A stretch of 36,991 nucleotides of DNA from a virus (Duplodnaviria > Caudoviricetes), in IMG/VR virus record IMGVR_UViG_3300016263_000151, positions 1 to 36,991 of that record; one strand, 5' to 3'. Both the position numbers and the translations under genes were made by a program. Positions 35 through 36,991 of this stretch are shown here, in pieces; the stretch's first letter is position 1; every line of letters starts with the position of its first letter. The notes below the pieces were generated by a model. The model saw only the letters and a list, made by a program, of their open reading frames with translations. It did not search any database and was not told the DNA's origin.

Positions 35-760
35 TCAAAAGAGATCCCCCTGCACGCCGTGCGAGATCCAGCAGGCTGCGGAATTGTGCGCCTCGATCCG
101 GCTGGCGATTACCTGGGCGCGCAATCCGGCAGATGGTGGGCAGTACATCCCGAACCGATCGACAGAGCCCGCGTTCACGCTTGCATTGGTGCTGTCGGCG
201 CTTGCCAGAGGCAAGTGCTGGAAAACCCTAGGGTCAAGCATGCGCAGCCCGTGGAGGCGGCAGGCAGGCCGACCCTGATCATCGCAGACAGCGTCCATGG
301 CCTCGCCCATGCGGTTCCACCATGACGCCGTGCCCGGCGTTGCCCATTGCCCTGACGAACCGAGGGCTACCATGTCCCACGCATTGGCTAGGCGCTCCAG
401 CCGCTCCAGGCTCTCGTGCAGGTGCCAGACCGGCACGCCGCGGATGTGGCTTGGCCAATCGGCCAGCAAAGCGTCGTTGTCGGCCTCCGCTCCTTCGATC
501 ACGTCAGGGATCAAAGCCCAGTCAAAGCCTGGGTGCCGATGCCATTCTTCGCACCAGGCAACGTATCCTGGGACGTCGATCTGGCCGCCCTGCTTCCAGA
601 CCGTGAAGGCGCCATTGTCGAAAACGAAGGACTGGCAGACCTCTGCCACGACAGCCAGGTCGTCGCGCCTTGGGTATGGGATAAGGGCGTGGCGGCCGGC
701 CAGGAATTGAGCAGCGGCCTGCCCTCCTCCTGAAACCGGCGTCCCGTGGTAGTGGATCAT
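35..760 (-). CDS. TGT-fold DNA transglycosylase, DpdA-like (7-deazaguanine insertion)
   Basis: Motifs in TGT/DpdA order: VFDNGAF, PDVI, PVWH, ALGSSG, LHGL, SADST; ATGA overlap with the upstream QueF-like ORF. Confidence 0.75.
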   Translation of the reverse strand: MIHYHGTPVSGGGQAAAQFLAGRHALIPYPRRDDLAVVAEVCQSFVFDNGAFTVWKQGGQIDVPGYVAWCEEWHRHPGFDWALIPDVIEGAEADNDALLADWPSHIRGVPVWHLHESLERLERLANAWDMVALGSSGQWATPGTASWWNRMGEAMDAVCDDQGRPACRLHGLRMLDPRVFQHLPLASADSTNASVNAGSVDRFGMYCPPSAGLRAQVIASRIEAHNSAACWISHGVQGDLF

Positions 761-13383: not shown

Positions 13384-13682
13384 TCGGCAACATGACGGCC
13401 GCGGTGCGGCGCATCCTCAACCGCAAGTCGGCCTATCGCCGGACGTTTCTCGACGCTGATGGCCACATCAACCGCAACGCCGAGATCGTCCTGGCCGACC
13501 TGCGCAAGTTCTGCCGGGCGACCTCGACCACGGTGACCGTCTCGCCGATCTCCAAGTCGATCGACCCGGTGGCCATGGGGATGGCCGAGGGCCGGCGCGA
13601 GGTGTGGCTGCGCATCATGGCGCACCTGCACATCGACGAGAAACAAGTCTTCAACCTTGAGGAGCCGAACGATGGCAACTAG
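13380..13682 (+). CDS. Bbp19-like protein
   Basis: VLADLRKFC...EGRREVWLRI directly after portal. Confidence 0.75.
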   Translation: MIGNMTAAVRRILNRKSAYRRTFLDADGHINRNAEIVLADLRKFCRATSTTVTVSPISKSIDPVAMGMAEGRREVWLRIMAHLHIDEKQVFNLEEPNDGN

Positions 13683-14136
13683 CGCAGCCAGGATGCTGGC
13701 CAACGAACCCGAAGAAAACGACGACGACGACGAAGGCGAGGTCGAATACGGCAACTCGGACCAAGTCAGCACCAACAAGACCGCCCACGAGTTTTTCGCC
13801 GTGCTGTTGCAGGCGGCCAGGTCGTCGCACGAGCTGCACCTCTCGACGCGGTCTTTCGCTGAGCACATGGCGCTCGACGCGCTCTACAGCGAGCTGCCTG
13901 GTCATGTCGACGGCCTGGTCGAGAGCTATCAGGGCGTCTTCGGCCTGATCACCGAATACCCGGCCAACCCGCCGATGCCCGACATGGGCAACTGTGTGAA
14001 GTTCGTCACGGATCTGCGCGCCTACGTCAAGGCCAAGCGCAAAGAGGTGAGCTCCAAGTCGGAGCACCAGAACGACATCGACGGCATCGTGACGCTGCTG
14101 AACCAAACACTCAACAAGCTCAAGTTCCTGTCCTGA
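13672..14136 (+). CDS. Ferritin/Dps-like four-helix protein (DUF5856-like)
   Basis: HELHLSTRSFAEHMALDALY...VDGLVESYQG; acidic N-terminal tract. Confidence 0.65.
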   Translation: MATSAARMLANEPEENDDDDEGEVEYGNSDQVSTNKTAHEFFAVLLQAARSSHELHLSTRSFAEHMALDALYSELPGHVDGLVESYQGVFGLITEYPANPPMPDMGNCVKFVTDLRAYVKAKRKEVSSKSEHQNDIDGIVTLLNQTLNKLKFLS

Positions 14137-20297: not shown

Positions 20298-22580
20298 ATG
20301 CCCAAGGCATCACCGCTTCGCTCATCGTTCAATGCCGGCGAGCTCTCGCCGCTTATGGCTGGCCGCCCCGATGTGGCCAAGTATGCGAACGGCTGCGAGC
20401 TGCTTGAGAATTTCATCCCCTCGGTGCAAGGGCCTGCCGTGCGTCGCGCCGGCACGCGGTTTGTCAACGAGGTGAAGGACAGCGCCGATCGCACCTGGCT
20501 GGCCCGGTTCGAGTTCAACACCGCCCAGGCCTATGTGCTGGAGTTCGGCGATCAGTACATCCGCTTCTACACCAACCACGGCGTTCTGCTGTCTGGTGGC
20601 GTGCCATACGAGATCGCTTCGCCCTACGCCATCGCCGACCTGACCGACGCCACCGATGGCACCTTCCGGCTCGACATGGTGCAATCCGGCGACGTGATCT
20701 ACATCGCGCACCCGAGCTACCCGCTGCAGAAACTTTCGCGGCTTGGCAACACCAACTGGACAATCGCCGATGCGCCGCTGACCAATGGACCGTTCAAGAC
20801 CGAGAACGTCGACCGCACCATCACGGTTTACGCCAGCGCGACCACGGGCAGTGTGACCCTGACGGCGAGCTCTGGCATTTTCACGTCGGCGATGGTGGGC
20901 TCGTTTGTCTACCTCGAACCCGCGGATCTATCCTCGGTCAAGCCCTGGACCGCTGGCCAGGAATACTCGACCAACCCGCTGAACACTTTGCGCCGGTCTG
21001 ACGGCAAGACCTACAAGTGCACGACCAATGGCACGCCGACATCCGGCAAGGTCTGGCGCACCGGTCCCGATAAGCCCATCCACATCTATGGCACCGAGGC
21101 AGACGGCGACTACAGCGGCATCAGCGGCACGACCTGCGAGCGCCAGGGTCTTGACTGGCTCTTTGTCGACTCGGGCTTTGGCTATGTGAAGATCACCGGG
21201 TTTACCAGCTCGACCGTCGTCACGGCCACCGTGCAGGGCAACAACCCGCTGCCGGCCGGTGTCGTCGGATCTGGCAACGCGACATTCCGCTGGGCCTTGG
21301 GCGCGTTTTCTGGGACCGAAGGCTATCCCAGCAAGGTGACGTTCTTCCGCGAGCGCCTGACGCTGGCCAAGGGCCAGGAGCTGTTCTTTTCCTGCTCGGG
21401 CGACTTTGAGAATTTCGCCAGCAAAGACGACAGCGGCCAGGTGGTGGCCGATCGGTCGATCAAGGTCACGATCTCGTCCGACCAGGTCAACCAGGTGCAG
21501 TGGCTGGCGCCAACCCAGTCGCTGATCATTGGCACGTCTGGCGGCGAGTTCGCCTGCGGGGAAAACTCAACCAACGAGGCGTTTGCGCCCGGCAACGTCA
21601 AGATTGAGCAGCAGACGTCCGAGGGCTCGCGTGGCGTGGTTCCCGTGCGCGTGGGCTACTCGACGCTGATGGTGCAGGCCTCTGGCCGCAAGGTCAAAGA
21701 GGTCGCCTACAACCTGCAGCAGAATGGCTATGTGACGAACGACGTCACGGTCCTGGCCGAGCACATCACCCTTGGCGGCATCGTGCAGACGAGCTGGCAC
21801 AAGGAGCCCTATGTGGCCATGTGGAGCGTGCGCGCGGACGGCAAGCTCCTGGGGTTCACGTTCAACAAGGAGCAGGACGTCGTCGGCTGGCATCGCCACA
21901 CCCTTGGCGGCTCCGGCGTCGTCGAGTCGGTCTGCGTCATCCCCTCCCCCGATCGCACCCGCGACGAGCTCTGGGTGATCGTGCGTCGCACCATCAACGG
22001 CTCGACCAAGCGATATGTCGAATATTTGGAGCGCGAGTATCAGGACGGCGACACGCAGTCGTCGTGCTTTTATGTCGACAGCGGCTTGACCTACAGCGGC
22101 TCGCCGGCCACGACGATCTCGGGCCTGAGCCATCTTGAAGGCCAGACCGTGCAGGTGCTGACGGATGGCGCCTCGCATCCTGACCGCGTGGTGACGTCAG
22201 GCTCAATCACGCTGCAACGCGCATCGAGCGTCGTGCAGGTTGGCCTGGCGTGTCCTGCCATTTTGAAGACCACGCGCATCGAGGCTGGCGCAGGCGATGG
22301 CACGGCGCAAGGCAAGACGAAACGCATCACAAAAGTGGTGTTCCGGTTCTACAATACGCTCGGTGCAAAGGTCGGACCCGATGCGAACAATCTGGATGAC
22401 ATCCAGTTCCGCACGCCCTCCGACCCAATGGACCAGGCGCCGCCGTTATTCACCGGTGACAAGCTCGTAGACTGGCCCGGTGGTTACGATTTCGACGGCT
22501 ATGTGATGGTGAGGCAAGAGCAGCCACTGCCGATGACGCTGGTGGCCGTCATGCCGCAAGTTCATACCTTCGATCGATGA
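20298..22580 (+). CDS. Tail nozzle / tubular protein B
   Basis: SFNAGELSP, EFGDQYIRFY, YPSKVTFFRERL, VVGWHRH, LSHLEGQTV. Confidence 0.85.
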   Translation: MPKASPLRSSFNAGELSPLMAGRPDVAKYANGCELLENFIPSVQGPAVRRAGTRFVNEVKDSADRTWLARFEFNTAQAYVLEFGDQYIRFYTNHGVLLSGGVPYEIASPYAIADLTDATDGTFRLDMVQSGDVIYIAHPSYPLQKLSRLGNTNWTIADAPLTNGPFKTENVDRTITVYASATTGSVTLTASSGIFTSAMVGSFVYLEPADLSSVKPWTAGQEYSTNPLNTLRRSDGKTYKCTTNGTPTSGKVWRTGPDKPIHIYGTEADGDYSGISGTTCERQGLDWLFVDSGFGYVKITGFTSSTVVTATVQGNNPLPAGVVGSGNATFRWALGAFSGTEGYPSKVTFFRERLTLAKGQELFFSCSGDFENFASKDDSGQVVADRSIKVTISSDQVNQVQWLAPTQSLIIGTSGGEFACGENSTNEAFAPGNVKIEQQTSEGSRGVVPVRVGYSTLMVQASGRKVKEVAYNLQQNGYVTNDVTVLAEHITLGGIVQTSWHKEPYVAMWSVRADGKLLGFTFNKEQDVVGWHRHTLGGSGVVESVCVIPSPDRTRDELWVIVRRTINGSTKRYVEYLEREYQDGDTQSSCFYVDSGLTYSGSPATTISGLSHLEGQTVQVLTDGASHPDRVVTSGSITLQRASSVVQVGLACPAILKTTRIEAGAGDGTAQGKTKRITKVVFRFYNTLGAKVGPDANNLDDIQFRTPSDPMDQAPPLFTGDKLVDWPGGYDFDGYVMVRQEQPLPMTLVAVMPQVHTFDR

Positions 22581-23002
22581 GGATTGTTCCATTTGAACCC
22601 GACCACCTGAACCGACTATTGCTTCAACCAAGCCAGGCCATCATGCAACCGACCTTGTCCAATCCGAAATATGCCGAGGGCCTGCACCAAGCAGGTCCAG
22701 CGTATTCGCTTGTTGACTATGATGCGGTTTTCGCATGCATGGGGCTTATTCCTCAATGGGAGAACCGAGCGATCGCGTGGGGTTTGATCAGCGCAGAGGC
22801 CGGCCCTCACTTCCTGATGATCCACAAGGCGGTGCATCGCACGATGCGCCTTCATTACTACCGTCGCATTGAGACGGCCGTCGCCTGCGATTTCAAGCAG
22901 GGCCATCGCTGGGCAAAGATGCTCGGCTTTGAGCGCGAGGGGCGCATGCGCTCCTACACGCCAGACGGCAGGGACTGCGACCTCTACGCGAGGGTTCAAT
23001 AA
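22577..23002 (+). CDS. GNAT-fold protein in the gp13-like position
   Basis: RWAKMLGFEREGRMRSY..DGRDCDLYAR. Confidence 0.65.
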   Translation: MRIVPFEPDHLNRLLLQPSQAIMQPTLSNPKYAEGLHQAGPAYSLVDYDAVFACMGLIPQWENRAIAWGLISAEAGPHFLMIHKAVHRTMRLHYYRRIETAVACDFKQGHRWAKMLGFEREGRMRSYTPDGRDCDLYARVQ

Positions 23003-23550
23003 TGGAAATAGCAGCAATCGGCTCAGCGCTTTCTGCGGCAGCGCCGGCCATCAGCCTGGTGTCGACCGCCGTGTCGGCTTTTGGCGCCATGCAACAGGCC
23101 GACGCCCAGTCCGCGAGCCTGCGCGCCCAGGCGCAGCAGCAGGAATACAACGCCACTGTGGCCCGCAACAATGCAAAGGTCGCCGCCGACCAGGCCAACG
23201 CAACGGAAGAGGCGCAGCGCCGTCACTTCAATGCGCTGCAGGGCCAGGCGATCGCTGGCGTCGCTCAATCCGGCACCGGGTTTGACGGCTCGAACCTCGA
23301 CCTGCTCAAGCAAAACGCAATCAACAACGAGCTCGACGCGCTGACCATTCGCTATGAAGGACAGAACCAGGCGAGAGGCTTAGAGGCGCAAGCCGCCCAG
23401 GATATGTACGGCGCAAGCGTGAGCCGCATGAACGCAAGCAATGCGATGACTGCTGGCTATTTCAACGCCGGCGCCAACCTGCTCAGCGGCGCGGCCAAAT
23501 ATGGCTACTACAGCCGGGTCGGCAACAAACCTTCTGCGATGGTGGAGTAA
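23002..23550 (+). CDS. Small internal virion (ejection) protein
   Basis: Hydrophobic Ala/Gly N-terminus, Gln/Ala helices, AQSGT.FDGS. Confidence 0.7.
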   Translation: MEIAAIGSALSAAAPAISLVSTAVSAFGAMQQADAQSASLRAQAQQQEYNATVARNNAKVAADQANATEEAQRRHFNALQGQAIAGVAQSGTGFDGSNLDLLKQNAINNELDALTIRYEGQNQARGLEAQAAQDMYGASVSRMNASNAMTAGYFNAGANLLSGAAKYGYYSRVGNKPSAMVE

Positions 23551-23553
23551 AGC

Positions 23554-26181
23554 ATGGCCGTCAAGATCCCCATCTATGAAGACCGCCTGACACCGAGTGG
23601 CTTTGGCGTCGTGCCGCGCGCGGCCAATGTCGAGTTTTCCGACGCGATCGGCCGCGGCATGCAGAACCTCGGAAACGCTGGCCAGGAGGTCGCCATCAGC
23701 GAGATGCGCGTGCAAAAGTACGAGGAGGAGCAGCGCAAGATCGCCGATGCAAAGCTGCAGAAAAAGCTCGACGACGACGCCATTGTTGCTGCCGGCAAGA
23801 CCATCTCCGACGCGGCCCTGCACTGGGACAGCTATCTGAAGAAGACGTCCGAGACGCCTGGCATGAGCTACGACGGTTTCATGCCCAAGACCGTCAAAGA
23901 GTTCGACGACTACGCCAAGACCACTTTGGCCGGCATCACCAACCAGAAGGCCCAGCAGTGGGCCGAGCAGCATCTCAACTCGATGCGCACCAACATCGGA
24001 ACGCGAGCCATCACCATGGAAGCGCAGGCCGGCGTTGCTGCGCGTGACGAGAACATCGAGCAGACCTATCAGAACCTGGCGCGCATCGCCGCTCAAGACC
24101 CGAGTCAATACGAGATCGGCCGCCAGATCCTGCTCTCGACCATCGCCAATGCTGGCTACGACCCGCAGACCCGCGTTGCGCGCGCCAAGACATATTTGGA
24201 GCGATATGGCGAGCAAGCGCTGACCGGTGAGATCGAGCGCAATCCAAACCCCGTCAAGTCGACCCTTGAGCGCGCCTACACCGGCTCGTTTGGGACCGCT
24301 GCCGACTTCGTGCTGAAGCAAGAGGGCGGGTATGTGGCCAACGACGCCGGCAAGGGTCCGACCAACATGGGGATCAACTCGCAGGCCAACCCCGGCGTCG
24401 ACGTCAAGAACCTGACGCGAGAGGGTGCCAAGGCGATCTACAAGAGCAAATACTGGGACGCGATCGGCGGCGACAAGCTCAACGAGCAGAGCCCGGCGCT
24501 TGCTTTGGTGGCTTTCGACACGGCCGTCAACATGGGGCCCGAGACTGCAAAAAAGCTCGTCGCCGAGGCTGGCGGTGACGTCAACAAGCTGCTGCAACTG
24601 CGCGAGCAGCGCTATGCCGACATCATCAAGAACGACCCGAGCAAAGCGCAGTTCAAGAACACATGGGCCAAGCGCATGTCCGAGCTGCGCGACGAGGTCA
24701 ATGCGACCTCTGGGCCAGCCGCTCCTGTGATCAGCTCGATTTCACGCGACATCAACGTCGATCGACTGCCGGCCTTCATCAACGCCGCCAACACCGAGGC
24801 CACCCGCCAGATGGGCGTCTATCGCAGCCAACTGCAGACGACCGAAGGCGATCACGTCGCCATGTACATGAACGGCCAGCCGCCTCAGAAGCCACTGACC
24901 GAGGGTGAGTACGTCAAGGCCTATGGCCCGGTCGAAGGACCGCAGCGTTTTGCCAACTATCAGCAGATCGCCGTGATGGGTTCCGACATCAACGCGCTGA
25001 AACTGCAGACGCCTGAGCAGATGGCCGCGGTCGCCGAGCGCTATCGGCCCGACCCGAACGCGCCCGGCTTTGAGCTCGCCACCAAGCGCTATGACACGAT
25101 CCTGAAAGCCATCGACCAGGTGAACCAGGCGCGCCAGGCCGACCCAATGGCTTATGCGCAGGCCACCAAGATTGGCGACGCCAAGCCGCTCAACTTCAAC
25201 GACCAGGCCGCCTTTGGCGCCGAGCTTAACAAGCGCACCGGTGTGGCCGCCACCATGCAGCAGACCTATGGCACGCCCTACTCCTTGCTGACCAAGGCCG
25301 AGGCGACCACGCTCAACGAAGGCTTTCAGCGCATGACCACCCAGCAGCGCCTGGGATACCTCAACACCATTCGCAGCTCGGTGACAGATCCGACCGCCTA
25401 TCGCGCCATCATGCAGCAGATCGCGCCAGACAGCCCGGTGACCGCCATGGCCGGCATGATCCTGTCGAAGCAAAACCCGGTGATCGTCAAGAACCTGATC
25501 AGCGCCGATCAGGTGTTTCAGCAGAAGGACGTCGCCGGCGTGATGCTTGAGGGCGAGGCGTTGCTGAATCCAAACAAGGCCGAAAAAACCGAGAACGGCA
25601 AGGGCAAGACGTTTCCCATGCCGAAAGAGCAGGACATGCGCGACCAGTTCACCAACGCTGTCGGCAAGGCCTTTGCGTCAGATCCGAACGGGGCAAATTT
25701 CGCCTATCAGGCGGTCAAGGCCTACTACGCCGGCCAGTCCGCGCGCGTGGGCGACGTCTCTGGCAACATCGACAGCGGCCGCATGAAGGACGCCATCACC
25801 GCTGTGATCGGTGGGGTGACCGACGTAAATGGCAAGGGCGAGGTGGTTCGTCCCTGGGGCATGAGCGAGGATCGCTTCATCAACGGCGCCAAGGCTGCGT
25901 TTGACGGCGCGATCGCCGCGGCCGGCTACAAGGGAACGCAGCTCGACGTCTGGGGCGCCTATGGCCTGCAGAGCGCTGGCGACAGCAAGTATCTGCTGCG
26001 CTCGGGCACGGGCTATCTGACCGACAGGACCGGCAACCCCATCGTGCTCGATCTGACCGAAAAGCCCGACTACTCGAGGCTCATCCCTGGTGGCGCGCCT
26101 GAGCCGCAACTCACGCCTCCGGCGACGCAAGCGCAAGGTAAGACCACCAAGCCCAACACCCAGCAGCCCAAGACCAAATGA
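23554..26181 (+). CDS. Internal virion protein with GH108-like muramidase domain
   Basis: VLKQEGGYVANDAGKGPTNMGI, YKSKYWD, FDTAVNMG at about 24300-24700. Confidence 0.8.
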   Translation: MAVKIPIYEDRLTPSGFGVVPRAANVEFSDAIGRGMQNLGNAGQEVAISEMRVQKYEEEQRKIADAKLQKKLDDDAIVAAGKTISDAALHWDSYLKKTSETPGMSYDGFMPKTVKEFDDYAKTTLAGITNQKAQQWAEQHLNSMRTNIGTRAITMEAQAGVAARDENIEQTYQNLARIAAQDPSQYEIGRQILLSTIANAGYDPQTRVARAKTYLERYGEQALTGEIERNPNPVKSTLERAYTGSFGTAADFVLKQEGGYVANDAGKGPTNMGINSQANPGVDVKNLTREGAKAIYKSKYWDAIGGDKLNEQSPALALVAFDTAVNMGPETAKKLVAEAGGDVNKLLQLREQRYADIIKNDPSKAQFKNTWAKRMSELRDEVNATSGPAAPVISSISRDINVDRLPAFINAANTEATRQMGVYRSQLQTTEGDHVAMYMNGQPPQKPLTEGEYVKAYGPVEGPQRFANYQQIAVMGSDINALKLQTPEQMAAVAERYRPDPNAPGFELATKRYDTILKAIDQVNQARQADPMAYAQATKIGDAKPLNFNDQAAFGAELNKRTGVAATMQQTYGTPYSLLTKAEATTLNEGFQRMTTQQRLGYLNTIRSSVTDPTAYRAIMQQIAPDSPVTAMAGMILSKQNPVIVKNLISADQVFQQKDVAGVMLEGEALLNPNKAEKTENGKGKTFPMPKEQDMRDQFTNAVGKAFASDPNGANFAYQAVKAYYAGQSARVGDVSGNIDSGRMKDAITAVIGGVTDVNGKGEVVRPWGMSEDRFINGAKAAFDGAIAAAGYKGTQLDVWGAYGLQSAGDSKYLLRSGTGYLTDRTGNPIVLDLTEKPDYSRLIPGGAPEPQLTPPATQAQGKTTKPNTQQPKTK

Positions 26182-29100
26182 GCTTCTTCGACCTCGATCC
26201 GACTGCCGGCCAGAACCTGATGGATCAGGCCAGGCTCAACCCGGTGAACCCCGAGGACATGAAGCCCGGGTGGTTTGCCGGGACGTGGAAGGCGCCCGTG
26301 ACTGGTCTGGCTTCCGCGGTCAACGATGCGGCTCTGTTACTGGGGGACGCCGCCACACCGGTGTTGCGCTCTACGGTGGCGCGTCCGATCGACACGCTGT
26401 TTGGCACCAAGACCGAGGACTGGCTGATCGGGCAGCAGCAGATCGCCCGCGACAACATCACCGCCTGGTCGCCTGACCCGCGCACCACCGGCGTCGTCGG
26501 CCAGGCTGTGCACGGCATCTTCAACATTGTGCCCGAGGCCGTCGCAGGTGGCCCAGAGGTCGCTGCGTTGCTGCAGGGCTACAAGGGCATGCAGGCAGGC
26601 CTGCAGGACGGCCTGGACCCCGGCACGGCCTTCGGCAAGGGCGCGATTGATGGCATCTCGACCTGGGTCGGCCTCAAGATCCCCATGACGCTGGCGCCGC
26701 AGCTCGGCGCGGCCGGCACGATCGGCACGGGCGCTGCGGGCAACCTGGTGACCGGTATGGCCACGAGGGGCGCGACAGGCGAGCTCCTGCGCGCGCGCGG
26801 CTATGGCGACATGGCCGACCAATACAAGGTGCTCGACGGCGCCGCGATCGCCACCGACCTGATCATGGGTGGAGCCTTTGGCGCCCTCGCCCACTACGGC
26901 CCCGCCGGCATGGCCAAATACAAGGAGTGGCAGAAAAGCAACGACGGCAAGCTGTTGAGCAGCGACGAGCAGACCGCGCTTTTCCTGAACGCCACACTGC
27001 ACGCCGAGCTCGACACCGCCCCGGGCATCCCCACCAACCCGGCCGCCCGGGCCGCGCATGCCGAAGCGCTCAACAAAGCCATGGCTGACCTGCTGTCGGA
27101 TAACCCGGTGACGGCGCCAGATGGCGTGACGCAGGCCGATTTCATCGACAACCCAACGGCCACGCAAACACGCGCCGAGATCATGACCACTGTCGAGGAG
27201 CACCTCGGCCCCGAGTGGCAGCAGCTCAAGGGCGAGCTCGAGGCCCGCGGTTTGCCTGGCGACACCACGCTCTACCAGGTCCGCACCGCGCCCGAGAACA
27301 TGGCGCCCGTGCGCCCGACCGCAGAGGTCAAAGGAATCATCGAGAAGGCCCGCGCCGAGGGCTGGGACGGCGAGCGCATCCTGTCCACCCTGGAAGGCCT
27401 GGCCGGTCGTCTTGAGCAACGCAACGCCGCCAACTTAGAAGCTCGCAAAGGCGACCGCGTGCGTGGCGAGCTCTGGATGCGCGAGCGTTTGACCCGCGCA
27501 GAACGCACTGGAGAGCTTTCTCCCGAGACGGTTCGTCTGGCCATGTGGCTTATCGACAAGAACCCGAACGTCGTGAGCGATTTGGCGCTGTCGATCCGTG
27601 GCAAGGGCGATGCCGGCGTCGGGGGCAACTACAACGTCGTCGAGCGCCTGGTCACGCTGATCAAGGGACGAGGCGACGACAGCACCGCCGTGCACGAGAT
27701 CCTGCACCACACCGAGCGCATGCTGCCCGAGCCTGTGCGCGAAGGCATCCGCCGCGCCTGGCTGAAAGAGCTGCGAGCCGTCGAGCGCTTCGCCAAGACG
27801 ACGCAGAACCAGACCCTGATGGTGGCCGTGGCCGATGCGCTGAAAGCGGCCACAGGTGACGACAAGGCGTTTGACCGTGTCGCCGAGATGATCAAAACCG
27901 GCGAGGTCAGCCAAAACTTCTACGCGCTGGTGAACCCGTCCGAGTTCTGGGCCGAAACGGCGTCGAAGATTATCCAGGGTCGTGCAGGCGCCGAAAGCTG
28001 GGTCGCCCAGGCTAAGCAGTGGCTGACAGAGTTCATTGAAAAGATCAAAGACGCCTTTGGCATGCGCAGTGACGCCGCGGTGATTCGAGGCCTGAACGCC
28101 GTCTTGAAGACCGAAGGCGACCTGTCCGGCAACATGCTGGCAACCAATGTGCGCCTGTATCCAGCAATCCGGCCAGGCGTCGAGGCGCCCGGTGTTGGCG
28201 TGGCCAAAGAGAACCTCAACGGATTTGAGCCGGATCTGCGCGTGAGCGTGCCGATTGGCCGCATAAGGCTGCCGGAAAAACCGCTCGTGCTGACCGGAAC
28301 CAACAAGAAGAACGCCGCCCGCCAGGTCGCAGCGATCGACGACATTCTGGCCAGGTTCCCCAACGCCGACGCGTCGCCGCTTGAGTGGTCGAAAATGATG
28401 GCCTACGCGATGGCCACCAAGGATGTGCCGGTCCCGCCCTATCGCTTCCTGTCGGACATCAACAGCGACGGCGCATTCAAGAGTCTGTCGCGTCTGAGCG
28501 CCGGCCAGATCGCAGACGCGAACCACGGTTTTGAGAACGCCCGCGCCTTCCGCGAGGCCTACATCGGCAAGCAGCTCGACGTGGTCACCACCGGCAAAAT
28601 GTTCCTGTGGTCGTTCCTGTCGCGCGGCGTGAGCCCCTACACCCAGGAAGGCCTGTTTATCGACGCTTTCCCGAGCGCTGGCGACTGGATCAAGAAGGCC
28701 GCAGAAGGCAACTTCACCGAAAAAGATTTTGCGGCATACGAGGCCTGGGCGAAGTCGGTTGCGCCGCAGGGATCTGGCCAGCCGGGATCTGGCGCCACGC
28801 ACAACCTCAACGCCTTCGGCAAGCTGTTCCTGTACAAGATGGGCGCCAAGGGCGAGGACGGCGTCTCGCTGCTGCAGAAGATGCACGACATGATGGAAGA
28901 CCCCAACATGACGGGCAAGGAGCTGCGCCGCTGGTTTATCCAGAACACCGAGGGCGTGGGCATCGACAACAAGGTCGTGTCCTTCACCATGCTGGTGGCT
29001 GGGTTTGACGACGTGATGGTGCTGGACCGCGTGCAGATCCGGCAGCTCTGGGACGACGGCCGGTTTGGCGATCGCAACCTGTATGACGGCCGCAAGGTCG

Positions 29101-29897
29101 ACGGGAAGCCTGTCGCCGGCTCTGCGCTGTCCGAGATCACCTACGGCGCCCGCGGCCTGCTGATATACGAGGCGATTGAGCGCGCGCTGGCCAAGCGCAT
29201 TGAGAACCTCTACAGCAGCCTGGGCCGCCCGCAGGACGCCAGCATTGGCCGCTATCACTGGGAAACCTGGGTGGCAGACAGCCAGCAGGAGGCCAGCCAC
29301 GGCACGCTGGACGCGATCCTGGCCGACGCCAGGGGTGACCAGGCGGCCATCTCCAACGTCACCGCCAAGGAGGGCGAATACGGCGGCTATGCCTACGGGG
29401 CGCGCTATGGCCGCGACGCCAATGGCCAGCCCTATTTCCTGTACACAACGCCCATGGGCAACGAATACCGGTTCGGTGTTGGGGCTTTCCGGGAGTTCTT
29501 GGAGGCGGTAAAATTACCAGCCAACAAAGTCGTGCCGACAAAGTTCAAAGTTACGGAGGCCGGAAATGCGCCCTGGTACCAAAGGCCGGAAGTCAACAAG
29601 CCAAACCTCGAAGCCCTCGCCCAGCGCTTTGCCGGAAAGCCCGGCGCGGGCGAAGGAGCGGGAGCTGTTCGCCCGGATGGCCAAGGTGAAGCAGTATCCG
29701 ATGGCGCCGGACGAGGAGCCGACCCCTACGGAGCCGACGCAGCAGTCCGCAACAATCCCAGCCTGACGGTCCCGATGGAAAACGGCGCCGAGGTTCCTGC
29801 CGCCCGAGCGCTTGCCCAGGCTGATGCGGAAATCGCAAAGGCGCAGCAGGATTCGCAAGGCTACGACGCAGCGGTCGCCTGCGCTTTAAGGGGCTGA
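26178..29897 (+). CDS. Large ejection protein with zincin (HEILH) and HhH-GPD/Ogg-like cargo domains
   Basis: Gly/Ala hydrophobic N-terminal third; HEILHH plus EFWAE; GIDNKVVSF...GFDDVMVLDR. Confidence 0.75.
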   Translation: MSFFDLDPTAGQNLMDQARLNPVNPEDMKPGWFAGTWKAPVTGLASAVNDAALLLGDAATPVLRSTVARPIDTLFGTKTEDWLIGQQQIARDNITAWSPDPRTTGVVGQAVHGIFNIVPEAVAGGPEVAALLQGYKGMQAGLQDGLDPGTAFGKGAIDGISTWVGLKIPMTLAPQLGAAGTIGTGAAGNLVTGMATRGATGELLRARGYGDMADQYKVLDGAAIATDLIMGGAFGALAHYGPAGMAKYKEWQKSNDGKLLSSDEQTALFLNATLHAELDTAPGIPTNPAARAAHAEALNKAMADLLSDNPVTAPDGVTQADFIDNPTATQTRAEIMTTVEEHLGPEWQQLKGELEARGLPGDTTLYQVRTAPENMAPVRPTAEVKGIIEKARAEGWDGERILSTLEGLAGRLEQRNAANLEARKGDRVRGELWMRERLTRAERTGELSPETVRLAMWLIDKNPNVVSDLALSIRGKGDAGVGGNYNVVERLVTLIKGRGDDSTAVHEILHHTERMLPEPVREGIRRAWLKELRAVERFAKTTQNQTLMVAVADALKAATGDDKAFDRVAEMIKTGEVSQNFYALVNPSEFWAETASKIIQGRAGAESWVAQAKQWLTEFIEKIKDAFGMRSDAAVIRGLNAVLKTEGDLSGNMLATNVRLYPAIRPGVEAPGVGVAKENLNGFEPDLRVSVPIGRIRLPEKPLVLTGTNKKNAARQVAAIDDILARFPNADASPLEWSKMMAYAMATKDVPVPPYRFLSDINSDGAFKSLSRLSAGQIADANHGFENARAFREAYIGKQLDVVTTGKMFLWSFLSRGVSPYTQEGLFIDAFPSAGDWIKKAAEGNFTEKDFAAYEAWAKSVAPQGSGQPGSGATHNLNAFGKLFLYKMGAKGEDGVSLLQKMHDMMEDPNMTGKELRRWFIQNTEGVGIDNKVVSFTMLVAGFDDVMVLDRVQIRQLWDDGRFGDRNLYDGRKVDGKPVAGSALSEITYGARGLLIYEAIERALAKRIENLYSSLGRPQDASIGRYHWETWVADSQQEASHGTLDAILADARGDQAAISNVTAKEGEYGGYAYGARYGRDANGQPYFLYTTPMGNEYRFGVGAFREFLEAVKLPANKVVPTKFKVTEAGNAPWYQRPEVNKPNLEALAQRFAGKPGAGEGAGAVRPDGQGEAVSDGAGRGADPYGADAAVRNNPSLTVPMENGAEVPAARALAQADAEIAKAQQDSQGYDAAVACALRG

Positions 29898-29898
29898 C

Positions 29899-32553
29899 AT
29901 GAGAGAGCGCTGCATCCAGGCCGTGTCCGACGCAATCGGGCGCGCCATCACCCAGCAAGAAGCGCAAGGCATCGAGGACCGGCTCCTCAAGAACATGCGC
30001 TTTGCCGCGGCCAAAGATCCCGCCGCCTTTCGCGCGCTGTCCGCCGACCAACGTCTCAAGGCCGCAGCGGGCCTAGCCGCCCAGGAGCTGGTGCAAGAGG
30101 CCGAGCTCAAAAAGCGCCGCATCGCCCTGACCATCCAGGCGCATGATCGCCTCTCGACCTTTCTGAACGACGCCAAGACGGCCGGCCTTGATGGCCTCGA
30201 CGCCCTGCGCCGCACCCTGGTCTTCGTCGCTGACGGCAAAAGCAACACCATGTCGGCCGAGAGCCGGGCCAACGCCGTGCGCGCCAACGCCATCCGACAG
30301 CTCGTCGATACGTTCGAGGCTGTCGACCCTCGGTTCTGGGGCCTGTTCGAGAGCGAGGAAGGCGTCAAGACGCTGACCCGGGCCATCTTTGGAGAGAAGA
30401 CGGGCGTGCCCGAAGCGGACGCCGGCGCCAAGGCCTGGCTGTCTGTGGCCAATCAGATGCGCGAGCAGTTCAACGAGGCGGGCGGCAAGATCGGCCTGCT
30501 GGAAAACTGGAACCTGCCGCAGCACCACAGCCAGACCAAGGTCAACAAGGCCGGCGCCAATGGCTGGATCGCCGACGTCATGGGCAAGCTCGACCGCAGC
30601 AAATACACCAACGACGACGGCACGGTCATGAACGACCAGCAGATTGAGGCCGTGTTGCGCAGCGCCTGGGTGACCATCGCCACCGGTGGCATCAACCAGA
30701 TGACGCCTGGCGGCCAGGGCCAATCCATGCTGGCCAACCGCCGCGCCCAGCACCGCGAGCTGCATTTCAAGGACGCCGACAGCTATCTCGACTACCAGGC
30801 CAAATATGGCGAGAAGTCGCTGTGGGGCGTTATTACCGGCCACGTCGAGGGCCTGTCCAAAGAGATCGCCATGCTGGAGACGTTCGGGCCCAACCCCGAC
30901 CAGACGTTCCGGCTGCTGATGGAGAAAGAGCTCCAGGCCGCCGCCATCGACGACCCCGCCAGCACTGCAAAGATGCAACAGCAGGCGCGCCGCCTGTCCG
31001 ACCTGTTCGATTTCGTCACCGGCAAGACCCAGCCGATCGTCAACGAGCACCTGGCCCAGACCTTCGACACGCTGCGCAACTGGCTGGTGGCCTCGCGCCT
31101 TGGTTCTGCCGTCATCACGGCGCTGACCGACGAGGCGACCCTGCACCTGACCGCCAAGGTCAACAACCTGCCCGAGATGCAGCTCATCCGCAACGAGCTC
31201 GCGGCGCTCAACGTGGCCAACAAGACCGAGGAGAACCTCGCGCACCGCGCAGGCCTCGGCGTCGACACGATGCTCAGCCACCTGAACCGCTGGGGCCAAG
31301 ACAATCTCGGTCCTACGTTCTCCAGCAAGATGGCCAACACGGTTATGCGCGCCTCGGGCATGGAAGCTCTGGACGGCGCGCGCCGCCGCGCGTTTGGCGT
31401 CACCATGATGTCGGCCCTGGGCGAGGTGGTGGGCAAATACGACAAGCTCGCGGATCTCGACCCGGTCGACAACCGCATTCTGTTGTCAAAAGGCATCACC
31501 GACGTCGACTTTGCGATCTGGAAGAAGGCGGAGCTCGAGAAGTGGGGCGCCGGCAACGGCGTGCTGACGCCCGAGTCGATCATGCGCCTGTCGACCCGAG
31601 ACATCTGGGAAGCGATCCAGCCGCGCATTCAGGAGCTCGTCGCCGAGAAGCAGGCCAAGATCGACGCCATCAACAAGATGGCCGCCATGACGCCGGAGGC
31701 GAAAGCCGAGTCGATCAAGAGCTGGTCCGACATCTACGACGACCAGATCGCCAACTTCGACGAGAAAGCCCGGCGCGAGGCCGTGCTGCGCCTGCTGGCC
31801 GTCGTGGGCGAAGAGACAGACATGGCCGTCATCCGGCCAGGCGCTGCTGACAAATTCCTGACGGGCGCCGGCATGGAGCGCGGCACCTGGAAGGGCGAGC
31901 TCACCCGCTCATTCTTTCAGTTCAAGGCCTTCCCACTTGCCATGATCGCGCGCCACTGGATGCGCGGCATGTCGATGGAAACCGCGGGCGGCAAGGCGAT
32001 CTATCTGGGCAGCCTGATCGCCGGCACCACGATCTTGGGCGCCGTGTCGCAGTCGATCAACGACCTGCTGCAGGGCAAGGACGTCCGCAACTACAACCCG
32101 ATGGAAGAGCACGGCGTAAAAAACTGGATGGCCGCATTCCTGAAGGGCGGCAGCCTGGGCCTGTATGGCGACTTTCTGTTTTCTGGGGCGACCCAGCACA
32201 ACCAGGCCGGACCGATCGCCGCGCTCCTTGGACCGGTCGCAGGCCTTGCCGAAGAGGCGTTCAAGCTCACCCAAGGCAACATCGTGCAGGCCATGCAAGG
32301 CAAGGACACCAACTTCGGCGCCGAGCTCGTTCGCTTCGTGAGAGGCAACACGCCGGGGGCCTCGCTGTGGTACGCAAAAGCAGCCCTCGACCATATAATC
32401 TTTCATCAACTGCAAGAGTATTTCAGCCCCGGTTACCTGGCTCAGATGCAGCGCCGGGCGCAGAAGGAATTTGGCCAGCAATACTGGTGGACCCCCGGCG
32501 CCGGAATCGAAGGGATGCGCGCCCCGAATTTGGCGCGAGCCATTGGAGAATAA
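29899..32553 (+). CDS. Large internal virion (ejection) protein
   Basis: 884 aa; LPQHH, HFKDADSY, FFQFKAFP, GGSLGLYGDFL, PGASLWY. Confidence 0.8.
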   Translation: MRERCIQAVSDAIGRAITQQEAQGIEDRLLKNMRFAAAKDPAAFRALSADQRLKAAAGLAAQELVQEAELKKRRIALTIQAHDRLSTFLNDAKTAGLDGLDALRRTLVFVADGKSNTMSAESRANAVRANAIRQLVDTFEAVDPRFWGLFESEEGVKTLTRAIFGEKTGVPEADAGAKAWLSVANQMREQFNEAGGKIGLLENWNLPQHHSQTKVNKAGANGWIADVMGKLDRSKYTNDDGTVMNDQQIEAVLRSAWVTIATGGINQMTPGGQGQSMLANRRAQHRELHFKDADSYLDYQAKYGEKSLWGVITGHVEGLSKEIAMLETFGPNPDQTFRLLMEKELQAAAIDDPASTAKMQQQARRLSDLFDFVTGKTQPIVNEHLAQTFDTLRNWLVASRLGSAVITALTDEATLHLTAKVNNLPEMQLIRNELAALNVANKTEENLAHRAGLGVDTMLSHLNRWGQDNLGPTFSSKMANTVMRASGMEALDGARRRAFGVTMMSALGEVVGKYDKLADLDPVDNRILLSKGITDVDFAIWKKAELEKWGAGNGVLTPESIMRLSTRDIWEAIQPRIQELVAEKQAKIDAINKMAAMTPEAKAESIKSWSDIYDDQIANFDEKARREAVLRLLAVVGEETDMAVIRPGAADKFLTGAGMERGTWKGELTRSFFQFKAFPLAMIARHWMRGMSMETAGGKAIYLGSLIAGTTILGAVSQSINDLLQGKDVRNYNPMEEHGVKNWMAAFLKGGSLGLYGDFLFSGATQHNQAGPIAALLGPVAGLAEEAFKLTQGNIVQAMQGKDTNFGAELVRFVRGNTPGASLWYAKAALDHIIFHQLQEYFSPGYLAQMQRRAQKEFGQQYWWTPGAGIEGMRAPNLARAIGE

Positions 32554-36175: not shown

Positions 36176-36617
36176 CCTGTTGAAGGGAGCAGCCCCTGCC
36201 CTGGCCACCGCGGTCGTCGGCCCCTTGGGTGGCGCGGCCATAAACGCGATCGCTGACAAGCTCGGCGTCCCTGCCACCCCGGCCGCCATCACCAGCGCGC
36301 TCGAGGCGAACCCCGAAGCCGCCGCCAGACTGCGCGAGATCGACGTGCGTGAGTTCGAGGCCGAACAGAAGGCCGTGTCCGAGCGCTGGCAGGCCGACAT
36401 GAACAGCGACTCGTGGCTGTCCAAGAACATCAGGCCCATGACGCTGATCTACCTGCTGACCGCCTACCTGCTCATGGCGGTCGCAGACGGCGCCGGGTTC
36501 CACATCTCTGAGAGCTACGTCACCCTGCTCGGACAGTGGGGCATGTTGGTCATGGGTGCTTATTTCGGTGGCCGGACTATTGAGAAAATCGCAACAACGA
36601 TGGAGAAACGCAAATGA
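36159..36617 (+). CDS. Holin (3TM gene-transfer-release holin-like)
   Basis: APALATAV.GP.GG, SDSWLSKNIRP, YFGGRTIEK. Confidence 0.75.
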   Translation: MDKLLDLLKGAAPALATAVVGPLGGAAINAIADKLGVPATPAAITSALEANPEAAARLREIDVREFEAEQKAVSERWQADMNSDSWLSKNIRPMTLIYLLTAYLLMAVADGAGFHISESYVTLLGQWGMLVMGAYFGGRTIEKIATTMEKRK

Positions 36618-36991
36618 AAGAAAACTTCGACGAGGCGCTGGCGGCCGTGCTGCATCACGAGGGCGGCTTTGTGAACCATCCTTCTGACCCTGGCGGCATG
36701 ACCAACCTGGGCTGCACCAAAAAGGTCTGGGAGGAGTGGGTTGGCCACCAGGTCGACGAGCAGACCATGCGCAACCTCAAGCCGGCCGACGTGGCCCCGC
36801 TCTACAAGGCCCGCTACTGGGACAAGGTGCACGGCGACGAGCTGCCTGCCGGAGTCGATTATGTGGTCTTTGACGCGGCCATCAACTCTGGCCCTGGGCG
36901 CGCCGTGAAGTGGCTGCAGGCCTGCGTGGGCGTTGATCCTGACGGAGCCATCGGTCCGCGCACCATGGCGGCCGTGAAGGCTGCGAACCCC
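36614..36991 (+). CDS. GH108 endolysin, partial at window end
   Basis: HEGGFVNHPSDPGGMTNLG, YKARYWD, FDAAINSGPGRA, DGAIGPRT. Confidence 0.92.
   Translation, partial: MKENFDEALAAVLHHEGGFVNHPSDPGGMTNLGCTKKVWEEWVGHQVDEQTMRNLKPADVAPLYKARYWDKVHGDELPAGVDYVVFDAAINSGPGRAVKWLQACVGVDPDGAIGPRTMAAVKAANP

Follow-up and report, generated by a model that had tools for sequence, protein, structure and literature searches.

A 1239-aa protein encoded by an uncultured short-tailed phage (record IMGVR_UViG_3300016263_000151) carries, within what is likely an internal virion protein of the epsilon15 gp16 type, a 482-aa module (residues 670-1151) whose core, residues 758-1041, almost certainly has the helix-hairpin-helix GPD (HhH-GPD) fold of the Ogg2 glycosylases, as judged from a predicted model. 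The record is 36,991 bases long, is rated complete and was analysed as a whole (hereafter the window). Our tentative reading is that the module is an injected Ogg2-fold glycosylase/apurinic-apyrimidinic (AP) lyase, which would rid the phage's own genome of an abnormal base as it enters the host. The module appears to belong to an extensive, so far unnamed group of Ogg2-fold glycosylases carried as cargo within phage virion proteins.

The case for a glycosylase fold is carried by structure comparison and conservation. An AlphaFold2 model of residues 670-1151 built on 96 sequences (predicted local distance difference test, pLDDT, 95.8; predicted template modelling score, pTM, 0.92) is two-lobed and helical, with a helix-hairpin-helix. 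The Ogg2 references were MjOgg (3FHF/3KNT), Tm1821 (3N0U) and SsOgg (3FHG), with the families PF22175 (Pfam) and PRK01229 (NCBIfam). With VIA-align, Tm1821 matched the model over 207 of its 209 residues (Z 15.8, root mean square deviation (rmsd) 3.0). All four Ogg2 entries, aligning over 203-208 residues at rmsd 3.0-3.5, took ranks 1-4 (Z 14.8-15.8), followed by hOGG1 (Z 10.5), and the fold is that of Ogg2 without the OGG1 A-domain. In a wide structural search ranks 1-25 were all glycosylases or glycosylase-fold proteins (Z 4.7-15.8), whilst Ogg2 chains held ranks 1-6 in Foldseek. The whole Ogg2 chain aligns, leaving about 90 extra module residues before the match and about 110 after it. The HhH-GPD fold had been proposed from the DNA letters by an earlier, sequence-only reading and is upheld by the predicted model. 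A nucleotide hydrolase like QNG1 (DUF2419), which would release the base of free modified nucleotides such as an immune signal, was also considered: QNG1 structures match the model over 235-257 residues (Z 8.7-10.0, rmsd 4.8-4.9) and take in part of its N-terminal extension. However, the QNG1 scores lie 5-6 Z units under those of Ogg2, the rmsd compares with 3.0 for Ogg2, and the sequence signal is to Ogg2 only, so that such a hydrolase is very unlikely.

Searches by sequence were borderline as to the identity of the domain. The top matches in a search of PDB sequences were to MjOgg (E=0.13 and 0.17), the Pfam family Ogg-HhH (PF22175) gave 11 bits against a cut-off of 27 (E=0.32), and a profile of the core reached MjOgg at E=0.0093. 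No NCBIfam model matched the domain, PRK01229 included, though a viral Ogg2 control passed, and no PHROG or PADLOC family matched it. A cluster in the ESM Atlas has PF22175 on 27% of its members (score 0.90, 137/256 features) and is given as a lead only. Lys932 and Asp950 are where the sequence-only reading had placed them (codons 28971 and 29025), 18 residues apart in the motif segment it had singled out (residues 926-958), and the GRYHWETW it had noted downstream lies at residues 1024-1031. No other K..D pair in the 1239-aa protein has this spacing. The motif by itself is weak evidence: a loose version, written post hoc, was found in 73 of 10,000 shuffles.

Conservation was read from 252 aligned sequences, made up of the query plus 251 matches. 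K932 and R951 are present in all 252 and D950 in 251; among the 70 rows below 50% identity, K932 is found in 70 and D950 in 69. Conservation of the Lys and Asp in homologues was one of the checks that the sequence-only reading had set for its proposal, as was prediction of an HhH-GPD fold, and the proposal withstood both. The two residues align with K129 and D147 of MjOgg (3KNT has Gln at the Lys position), and the hairpin Lys is thus paired with an Asp as in bifunctional glycosylase/AP lyases, for which PMC13490550 gives the Lys-Asp dyad as a mark among HhH enzymes. Conservation also sets the register of the hairpin, G928-I-D-N-K932 against G-I-G-Y-K in Ogg2, with G928 in 252/252 rows and G926 in 229/252; the position of the second hairpin Gly is Asp in 229/252.

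The register of the pocket was inferred from alignment end points, since residues 325 of hOGG1, 289 of CacOgg and 207 of Ogg2 end at residues 1037, 1038 and 1041, respectively. It sets W1031 on Trp198/Phe319 and H1027 on Asp194/Gln315, pocket residues named in PMC3397491. The stacking Trp of MjOgg (W198) would therefore be retained as W1031, and the wedge Phe as F884 (219/249 ungapped rows). H1027, W1031 and H1041 each occur in 251/251 ungapped rows and F936 in 251/252, and these four and Q1037 are all nearly invariant. According to PMC3397491, Ogg2 separates 8-oxoguanine (8-oxoG) from G by the carboxylate of its C-terminal Lys, which reads N7-H, and PMC13490550 describes that carboxylate as held by His/Arg/Asn at K+4/+7/+8. 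In the carrier domain, residue 207 of all four Ogg2 structures aligns instead with H1041 and the chain continues; the clamp positions are Phe, Leu and Val (251, 249 and 216 of 252 rows); and the Asp at W-4 (MjOgg D194), which reads the guanine edge, is H1027. Cellular Ogg2 controls were not found in sets of 2 and 201 genomes and six viral Ogg2 proteins were used; all six end in Lys and keep all these recognition features. These canonical stand-alone genes lie on six viral contigs (L122:1291-1908, L129, L139, L143, L154 and L156), three of which are 158-388 kb long.

By this comparison the domain is not a member of Ogg2, other conserved residues having taken the places of the Lys sensor, the clamp and the Asp that reads guanine. 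The loss of the sensor is coherent, the replacements being nearly invariant, and the chemistry is most likely Ogg2-like. The label 'Ogg-like' given by the sequence-only reading accordingly holds for the fold and the Lys-Asp pair and fails for the residues that recognise 8-oxoG, and so should be taken to describe fold rather than substrate. Since E. coli Nth has a His at the equivalent end-register position (176), the His at W-4 does not imply a dead enzyme. The sensor of hOGG1 is a backbone carbonyl (PMC3397491), which H1041 could also offer; 8-oxoG is therefore a possible substrate, only via a sensor unlike that of Ogg2.

Residues 670-1151 are probably an active enzyme, going by the conserved residues. 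It is rather improbable that they excise no base at all, with the Lys trapping or cleaving existing AP sites or the domain gripping and shielding the entering DNA. Ogg2 without its C-terminus loses 8-oxoG excision and retains AP-lyase activity (PMC3397491), and the N- and C-terminal extensions of the module (about 90 and 110 residues) contain conserved positions, both of which would suit such a binder. However, the near invariance of W1031, H1027, H1041, F936 and Q1037 suggests that a specific base pocket has been kept.

The position of the gene agrees with the claim of the sequence-only reading that it sits among ejection proteins. The late genes of the window run terminase, portal, scaffold, capsid, adaptor, nozzle, gp13-like, gp14-like, 875-aa GH108 protein, 1239-aa protein, 884-aa virion protein and T7-type fibre, which is the gp12-gp17 order of epsilon15. 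The N-terminal 240-370 residues of the carrier match 41 phage records, including epsilon15 gp16 (E=2e-14) and, in phiV10, SPN1S and PAT1, genes that carry a structural annotation, and its last 50 residues resemble the end of gp16 (17/48 identical, E=2e-6). Epsilon15 gp16 has 634 aa, compared with 1239 aa in the carrier, where a zincin-motif domain and the glycosylase module lie between the shared ends. In PMC4819975, gp15 and gp16 are proposed as counterparts of IVP-C, gp16 as an internal virion protein, and gp17 is given as IVP-D. The similarity of both ends and the gene order, gp13-gp17, make membership of the gp16-type class likely, the virion location of gp16 being a proposal of the literature. 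The carrier gene does not result from misassembly: in a second run of the study of origin, five overlapping contigs together span it without differing letters, and a run from a different study contains close relatives across most of the glycosylase domain.

Relatives of residues 670-1151 form 395 clusters at 50% identity and include 80 loci in viral contigs. The domain was absent from 50,697 GenBank phage records, and genome assemblies yielded five small or phage-like contigs with it. The core is under purifying selection, dN/dS being 0.09-0.27 in 7/7 close pairs (7 of the 80 loci) and below that of the scaffold in each, where the scaffold values, taken at 41-46% identity, are rough. All 60 carrier open reading frames (ORFs) that are complete within their locus are fusions of 747-3734 aa; none is stand-alone. 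Nine short database proteins looked stand-alone, and 21 metagenome loci fetched with one of the nine contained no complete stand-alone gene, the nine not each having been placed. A virion neighbour, or a scaffold resembling that of the window, was found at 50/80 viral loci. Five further loci were checked, and four lie in a virion module (three of them adjoining a gene annotated as an ejection protein) and one has no recognisable neighbour.

Ten orthologous loci with a gp16-like gene were fetched via the adjoining gp17-like gene. Seven are without the domain, and their slot holds ddrB-ParB (two), SLT (one) or no Pfam domain (four); in close relatives of the carrier, ART-PolyVal or GNAT is inserted just upstream of the module. 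Because 7/10 orthologues have other cargo or none, the module is swappable cargo between two fixed gp16-like ends. Elsewhere it forms part of a gp17-like fusion, of giant proteins encoded ahead of the fibre gene, of a family of 750-aa proteins and of a protein with InPase and methyltransferase domains whose gene follows the terminase gene. Polyvalent-type Pfam domains were detected in 12 of the 21 carriers scanned, and the partners of the module include ART-PolyVal, LPD22/23/37/38, PBECR5, InPase, GNAT and the HExxH domain. The scaffold labels form clusters on a tree built from 32 cores, yet 10 changes are needed for eight groups, which fits movement between scaffolds, without direction. Among the structures in BFVD, the model also has weaker Ogg2-fold matches to phage proteins both large and small, for example A0A6J5LC27 (859 aa) and G8EYE9 of Synechococcus phage S-CBP42 (198 aa), which suggest further Ogg2-fold phage families.

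In these respects the carrier resembles the polyvalent proteins of Iyer et al. 2017 (PMC5512222), large proteins of the virion module with swappable enzyme domains. It likewise joins disparate, exchangeable domains in one chain and is encoded in the virion module (in the window, at 50/80 loci by similarity and at 4/5 others). Residues 416-660 share the HExxH helix and the Glu in a later helix that PMC5512222 gives as the signature of the zincin-like metallopeptidases (MPTases) of polyvalent proteins. H506, E507 and H510 are conserved in 51/51 ungapped rows and E589 in 52/52. The model of this region has low confidence at the expected strands, and a fold search with it was filled by N-terminal helices and listed no zincin. 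The sequence-only reading knew of no comparable function in an ejection protein. The principle of an enzyme-bearing ejection protein is already known from the polyvalent proteins, and it is the domain that is new: glycosylase, Ogg and lyase do not occur in the main text of PMC5512222, whose supplementary list of 131 domains may include it.

The domain is quite likely delivered into the host, on the strength of these homologies, and we lean towards the phage's own DNA as its target. The sequence-only reading had named repair of virion DNA, removal of host-made adducts and attack on host DNA as possible roles, and all three stay hypotheses. In the proposed sequence of events, the gp16-like ends would direct packaging of the carrier in the head and its exit alongside the other ejection proteins, as homology and gene order suggest. 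Once in the host the domain would refold, perhaps after release by the adjoining zincin-motif domain. A base would then be flipped against W1031, K932 and D950 would cut it off and nick the strand by the known Lys-Asp mechanism, and host repair enzymes would fill the resulting gap. The base removed would probably be one damaged while in the capsid or one marked by the host. A weak argument for an own-DNA target is that a protein injected in few copies could cope with a single 37-kb genome more readily than with a chromosome.

Several points weigh against this proposal. Nothing directly favours own over foreign DNA as the target, and nicking one's own genome is risky. Delivery to the cytoplasm is not given. 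T7 gp15 is an IVP-C protein. It forms a periplasmic tunnel (PMC8954989), gp16 is a proposed counterpart of IVP-C, and one orthologue has the cell-wall SLT domain in the same slot. In one lineage the carrier gene follows the terminase gene and lies outside an ejection cassette. As regards the enzyme, the pocket register is inferred from alignment end points rather than coordinates, and the Ogg2 His at D+2, which contacts the lesion phosphate, is Val or Ile in 252/252 rows. A profile that included flanking columns (A1) retrieved no glycosylase and missed Ogg2, profile-profile comparison (hhalign) with the six viral Ogg2 gave only 3% probability, and Foldseek returned no match at E<=0.001 (best 5.4e-3). 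The single RNA run checked gave no coverage of the glycosylase domain.

The module might instead act before packaging, with the zincin-motif domain freeing it during assembly so that progeny DNA is proofread late, or it might go undelivered, ending in the periplasm. P1 DdrB is described as processed before packaging (PMC5512222), and the window-type zincin region was detected in only 52/280 carriers. Against this, a late cytoplasmic enzyme needs no fusion, whereas the 60 complete carriers are all fused, on several virion scaffolds, and the module is flanked on both sides by conserved gp16 ends. We regard action before packaging, or without delivery, as improbable.

A second alternative is that the injected glycosylase is a weapon that, like the host defence enzyme Dag1, excises a modified base (a 7-deazaguanine, for example), its target being the DNA of the host or of a rival phage. 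Dag1, described in bioRxiv 2025.10.29.685425, cuts DNA that contains 7-deazaguanine; it is an HhH glycosylase and has the Lys, the Asp and a stacking Trp. A base that lacks N7-H would be compatible with the missing N7-H sensor, ddrB-ParB DNase domains occupy the same slot in 2/7 domain-free orthologues, and the carriers, mostly without deazaguanine genes, would be immune. However, Dag1 requires an Asp at W-4 (D184/W188; D184A abolishes defence, bioRxiv 2025.10.29.685425), which is His in 251/251 rows here. Few copies would be injected, and once only; the window and 1/35 carrier contigs encode a TGT-like gene that could make them targets; and PADLOC gave no match. This alternative is unlikely. 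Dag1 and Dag2 were compared by description: they too are repurposed HhH glycosylases in phage-host conflict, but they are host-encoded and stand-alone, unlike the phage-encoded, fused domain of the carrier. Host UNG2 packaged by HIV-1 is likewise a particle-borne glycosylase, acting early on the viral genome (bioRxiv 2025.10.29.685425); it is a host enzyme of another fold, whereas the carrier domain is phage-encoded and part of a structural protein.

The gene content and composition of the carrier genomes bear on the identity of the base. QueC, FolE and thymidylate synthase were absent from 18/18 near-complete carrier genomes, and restriction-type words are strongly avoided in many carriers; carrier DNA is therefore unlikely to be hypermodified, and any unusual base that it contains would stem from damage or from marking by the host, which weakly favours the phage's own DNA as the target. 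Clustering of the ORFs of 18 carrier and six non-carrier genomes found no non-structural family common to the carrier lineages. This also tells against a transferase that modifies bases in the manner of the aGPT-Pplase/PUGT enzymes, which have the glycosylase fold and hypermodify phage thymidine. PaMx11 gp46 does appear in the fold lists, and a 2OG-Fe(II) oxygenase gene follows the carrier in one lineage; the Z of 4.3 for gp46, however, is background level, and the thymidylate-synthase family (PF00303) was found in 0/18 carrier genomes, leaving a transferase highly improbable. In the lineage concerned (L082:7742-12969 and L234:3796-9032) the domain lies in the InPase-methyltransferase protein right after the terminase, and the oxygenase gene comes next; the two might form an oxidise-then-excise pair. 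A MuF fusion considered for L082 was dropped, as the 'minor head protein' PHROG match is the InPase stretch.

A TGT-like gene (phrog_887, E=1.5e-67) lies at 35-760 (-) of the window, with a small neighbour at 757-996 (-; phrog_37496) and a partial DNA-methyltransferase-like gene at 1023-1814 (-; phrog_1008 over residues 61-213) that adjoins the TGT-like gene. The genome is without QueC or FolE, and the TGT-like protein is possibly an orphan DNA transglycosylase fed by host precursors. It was rejected as a partner of the module, being present in 1/35 carrier contigs of at least 25 kb (35 of the 80 loci) and 0/9 comparison contigs. A DUF5856/Dps-like gene lies between the portal and scaffold genes (13657-14136, +); such genes were found in 6/18 carrier genomes and 0/6 controls (p=0.28).

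GANTC is an alphaproteobacterial methylation site. It is depleted in 12/18 carriers and 0/6 controls (p=0.014, the word having been chosen after a scan of all 2-6-mers), falling to 0.02-0.15 of expectation in G014, G020, G021, G022, G024 and G031 and to 0.50 in the window. Six carriers are near expectation (0.83-0.92), and several GANTC-poor genomes are also without CCWGG or GGCGCC. No 2-6-mer is avoided by all carriers yet not by the controls. The word was therefore rejected as a self-avoided target and read as a host or lineage effect; its depletion is likely a clue to the host.

The coordinates of the carrier gene, its parts and its neighbours are given in the table. The GH108 lysozyme family occurs twice in the window, in the gp15-like ejection protein (23554-26181) and in the endolysin (36614-36991).

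Table. Parts of the carrier gene and adjoining genes, in window coordinates.
Feature	Position	Strand	Basis
1239-aa carrier gene, likely epsilon15 gp16-type internal virion protein with inserted cargo	26178..29897	+	homology and gene order
N-terminal scaffold, residues 1-366	26178..27275	+	phrog_1145 E=9e-56; epsilon15 E=2e-14
Zincin-motif domain, residues ~416-660 (HExxH 506-510, E589), predicted metallopeptidase	27423..28157	+	motif conservation
Mobile glycosylase-fold module (predicted), residues 670-1151	28185..29630	+	pLDDT 95.8, pTM 0.92; unit common to unrelated carriers
Ogg2-like HhH-GPD core (predicted), residues 758-1041	28449..29300	+	Z 15.8, rmsd 3.0, 207/209 Tm1821 residues
K932 (AAG), predicted catalytic nucleophile, MjOgg K129	28971..28973	+	252/252; position of the Q mutant in 3KNT
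D950 (GAC), predicted catalytic Asp, MjOgg D147	29025..29027	+	251/252; alignment
Putative pocket helix and loop: H1027 (Ogg2 Asp194), W1031 (Ogg2 Trp198), H1041 (Ogg2 C-terminal Lys position)	29256..29300	+	251/251 ungapped rows each; inferred register
C-terminal alpha/beta subdomain of module, residues 1042-1151, without an Ogg2 counterpart	29301..29630	+	predicted secondary structure; outside Ogg2 match
C-terminal scaffold tail, residues 1190-1239	29745..29897	+	17/48 identical to epsilon15 gp16 end, pairwise E=2e-6
Upstream cassette: gp13-like, gp14-like, 875-aa gp15-like with GH108 lysozyme domain	22577..26181	+	PHROG/Pfam matches, epsilon15 order
Downstream 884-aa gp17-like (IVP-D-type) virion protein	29899..32553	+	phrog_684 E=2e-276; epsilon15 order

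No paper on a glycosylase domain in a phage ejection or virion protein was found in a literature search made without most subscription papers. The phage glycosylase genes described in PMC7824862, PMC5336643 and PMC11288001 are stand-alone. Phage glycosylases on record are stand-alone repair genes, and the glycosylases recorded in conflict are host defences; one within an ejection protein would put base excision at the disposal of the phage during the opening minutes of infection. The family, with 395 clusters, is large and has no name in Pfam, PHROGs, NCBIfam or PADLOC, and it is better conserved than the structural scaffold that surrounds it. Because the predicted pocket differs from that of Ogg2 at every base-reading position except the Trp, its substrate could be a new lesion or mark and the enzyme a new reagent, and the 482-aa module, predicted to fold as a single unit, should be easily expressed. 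A bolder form of the proposal, which we think doubtful, is that an Ogg2-derived glycosylase with a rebuilt pocket strips a host-added mark from the entering genome before the phage genes are read, a counter-defence that has moved among the virion proteins of many unrelated phage lineages. If this is true, the identity of the removed base would lead to a host defence, as yet undescribed, by which foreign DNA is marked.

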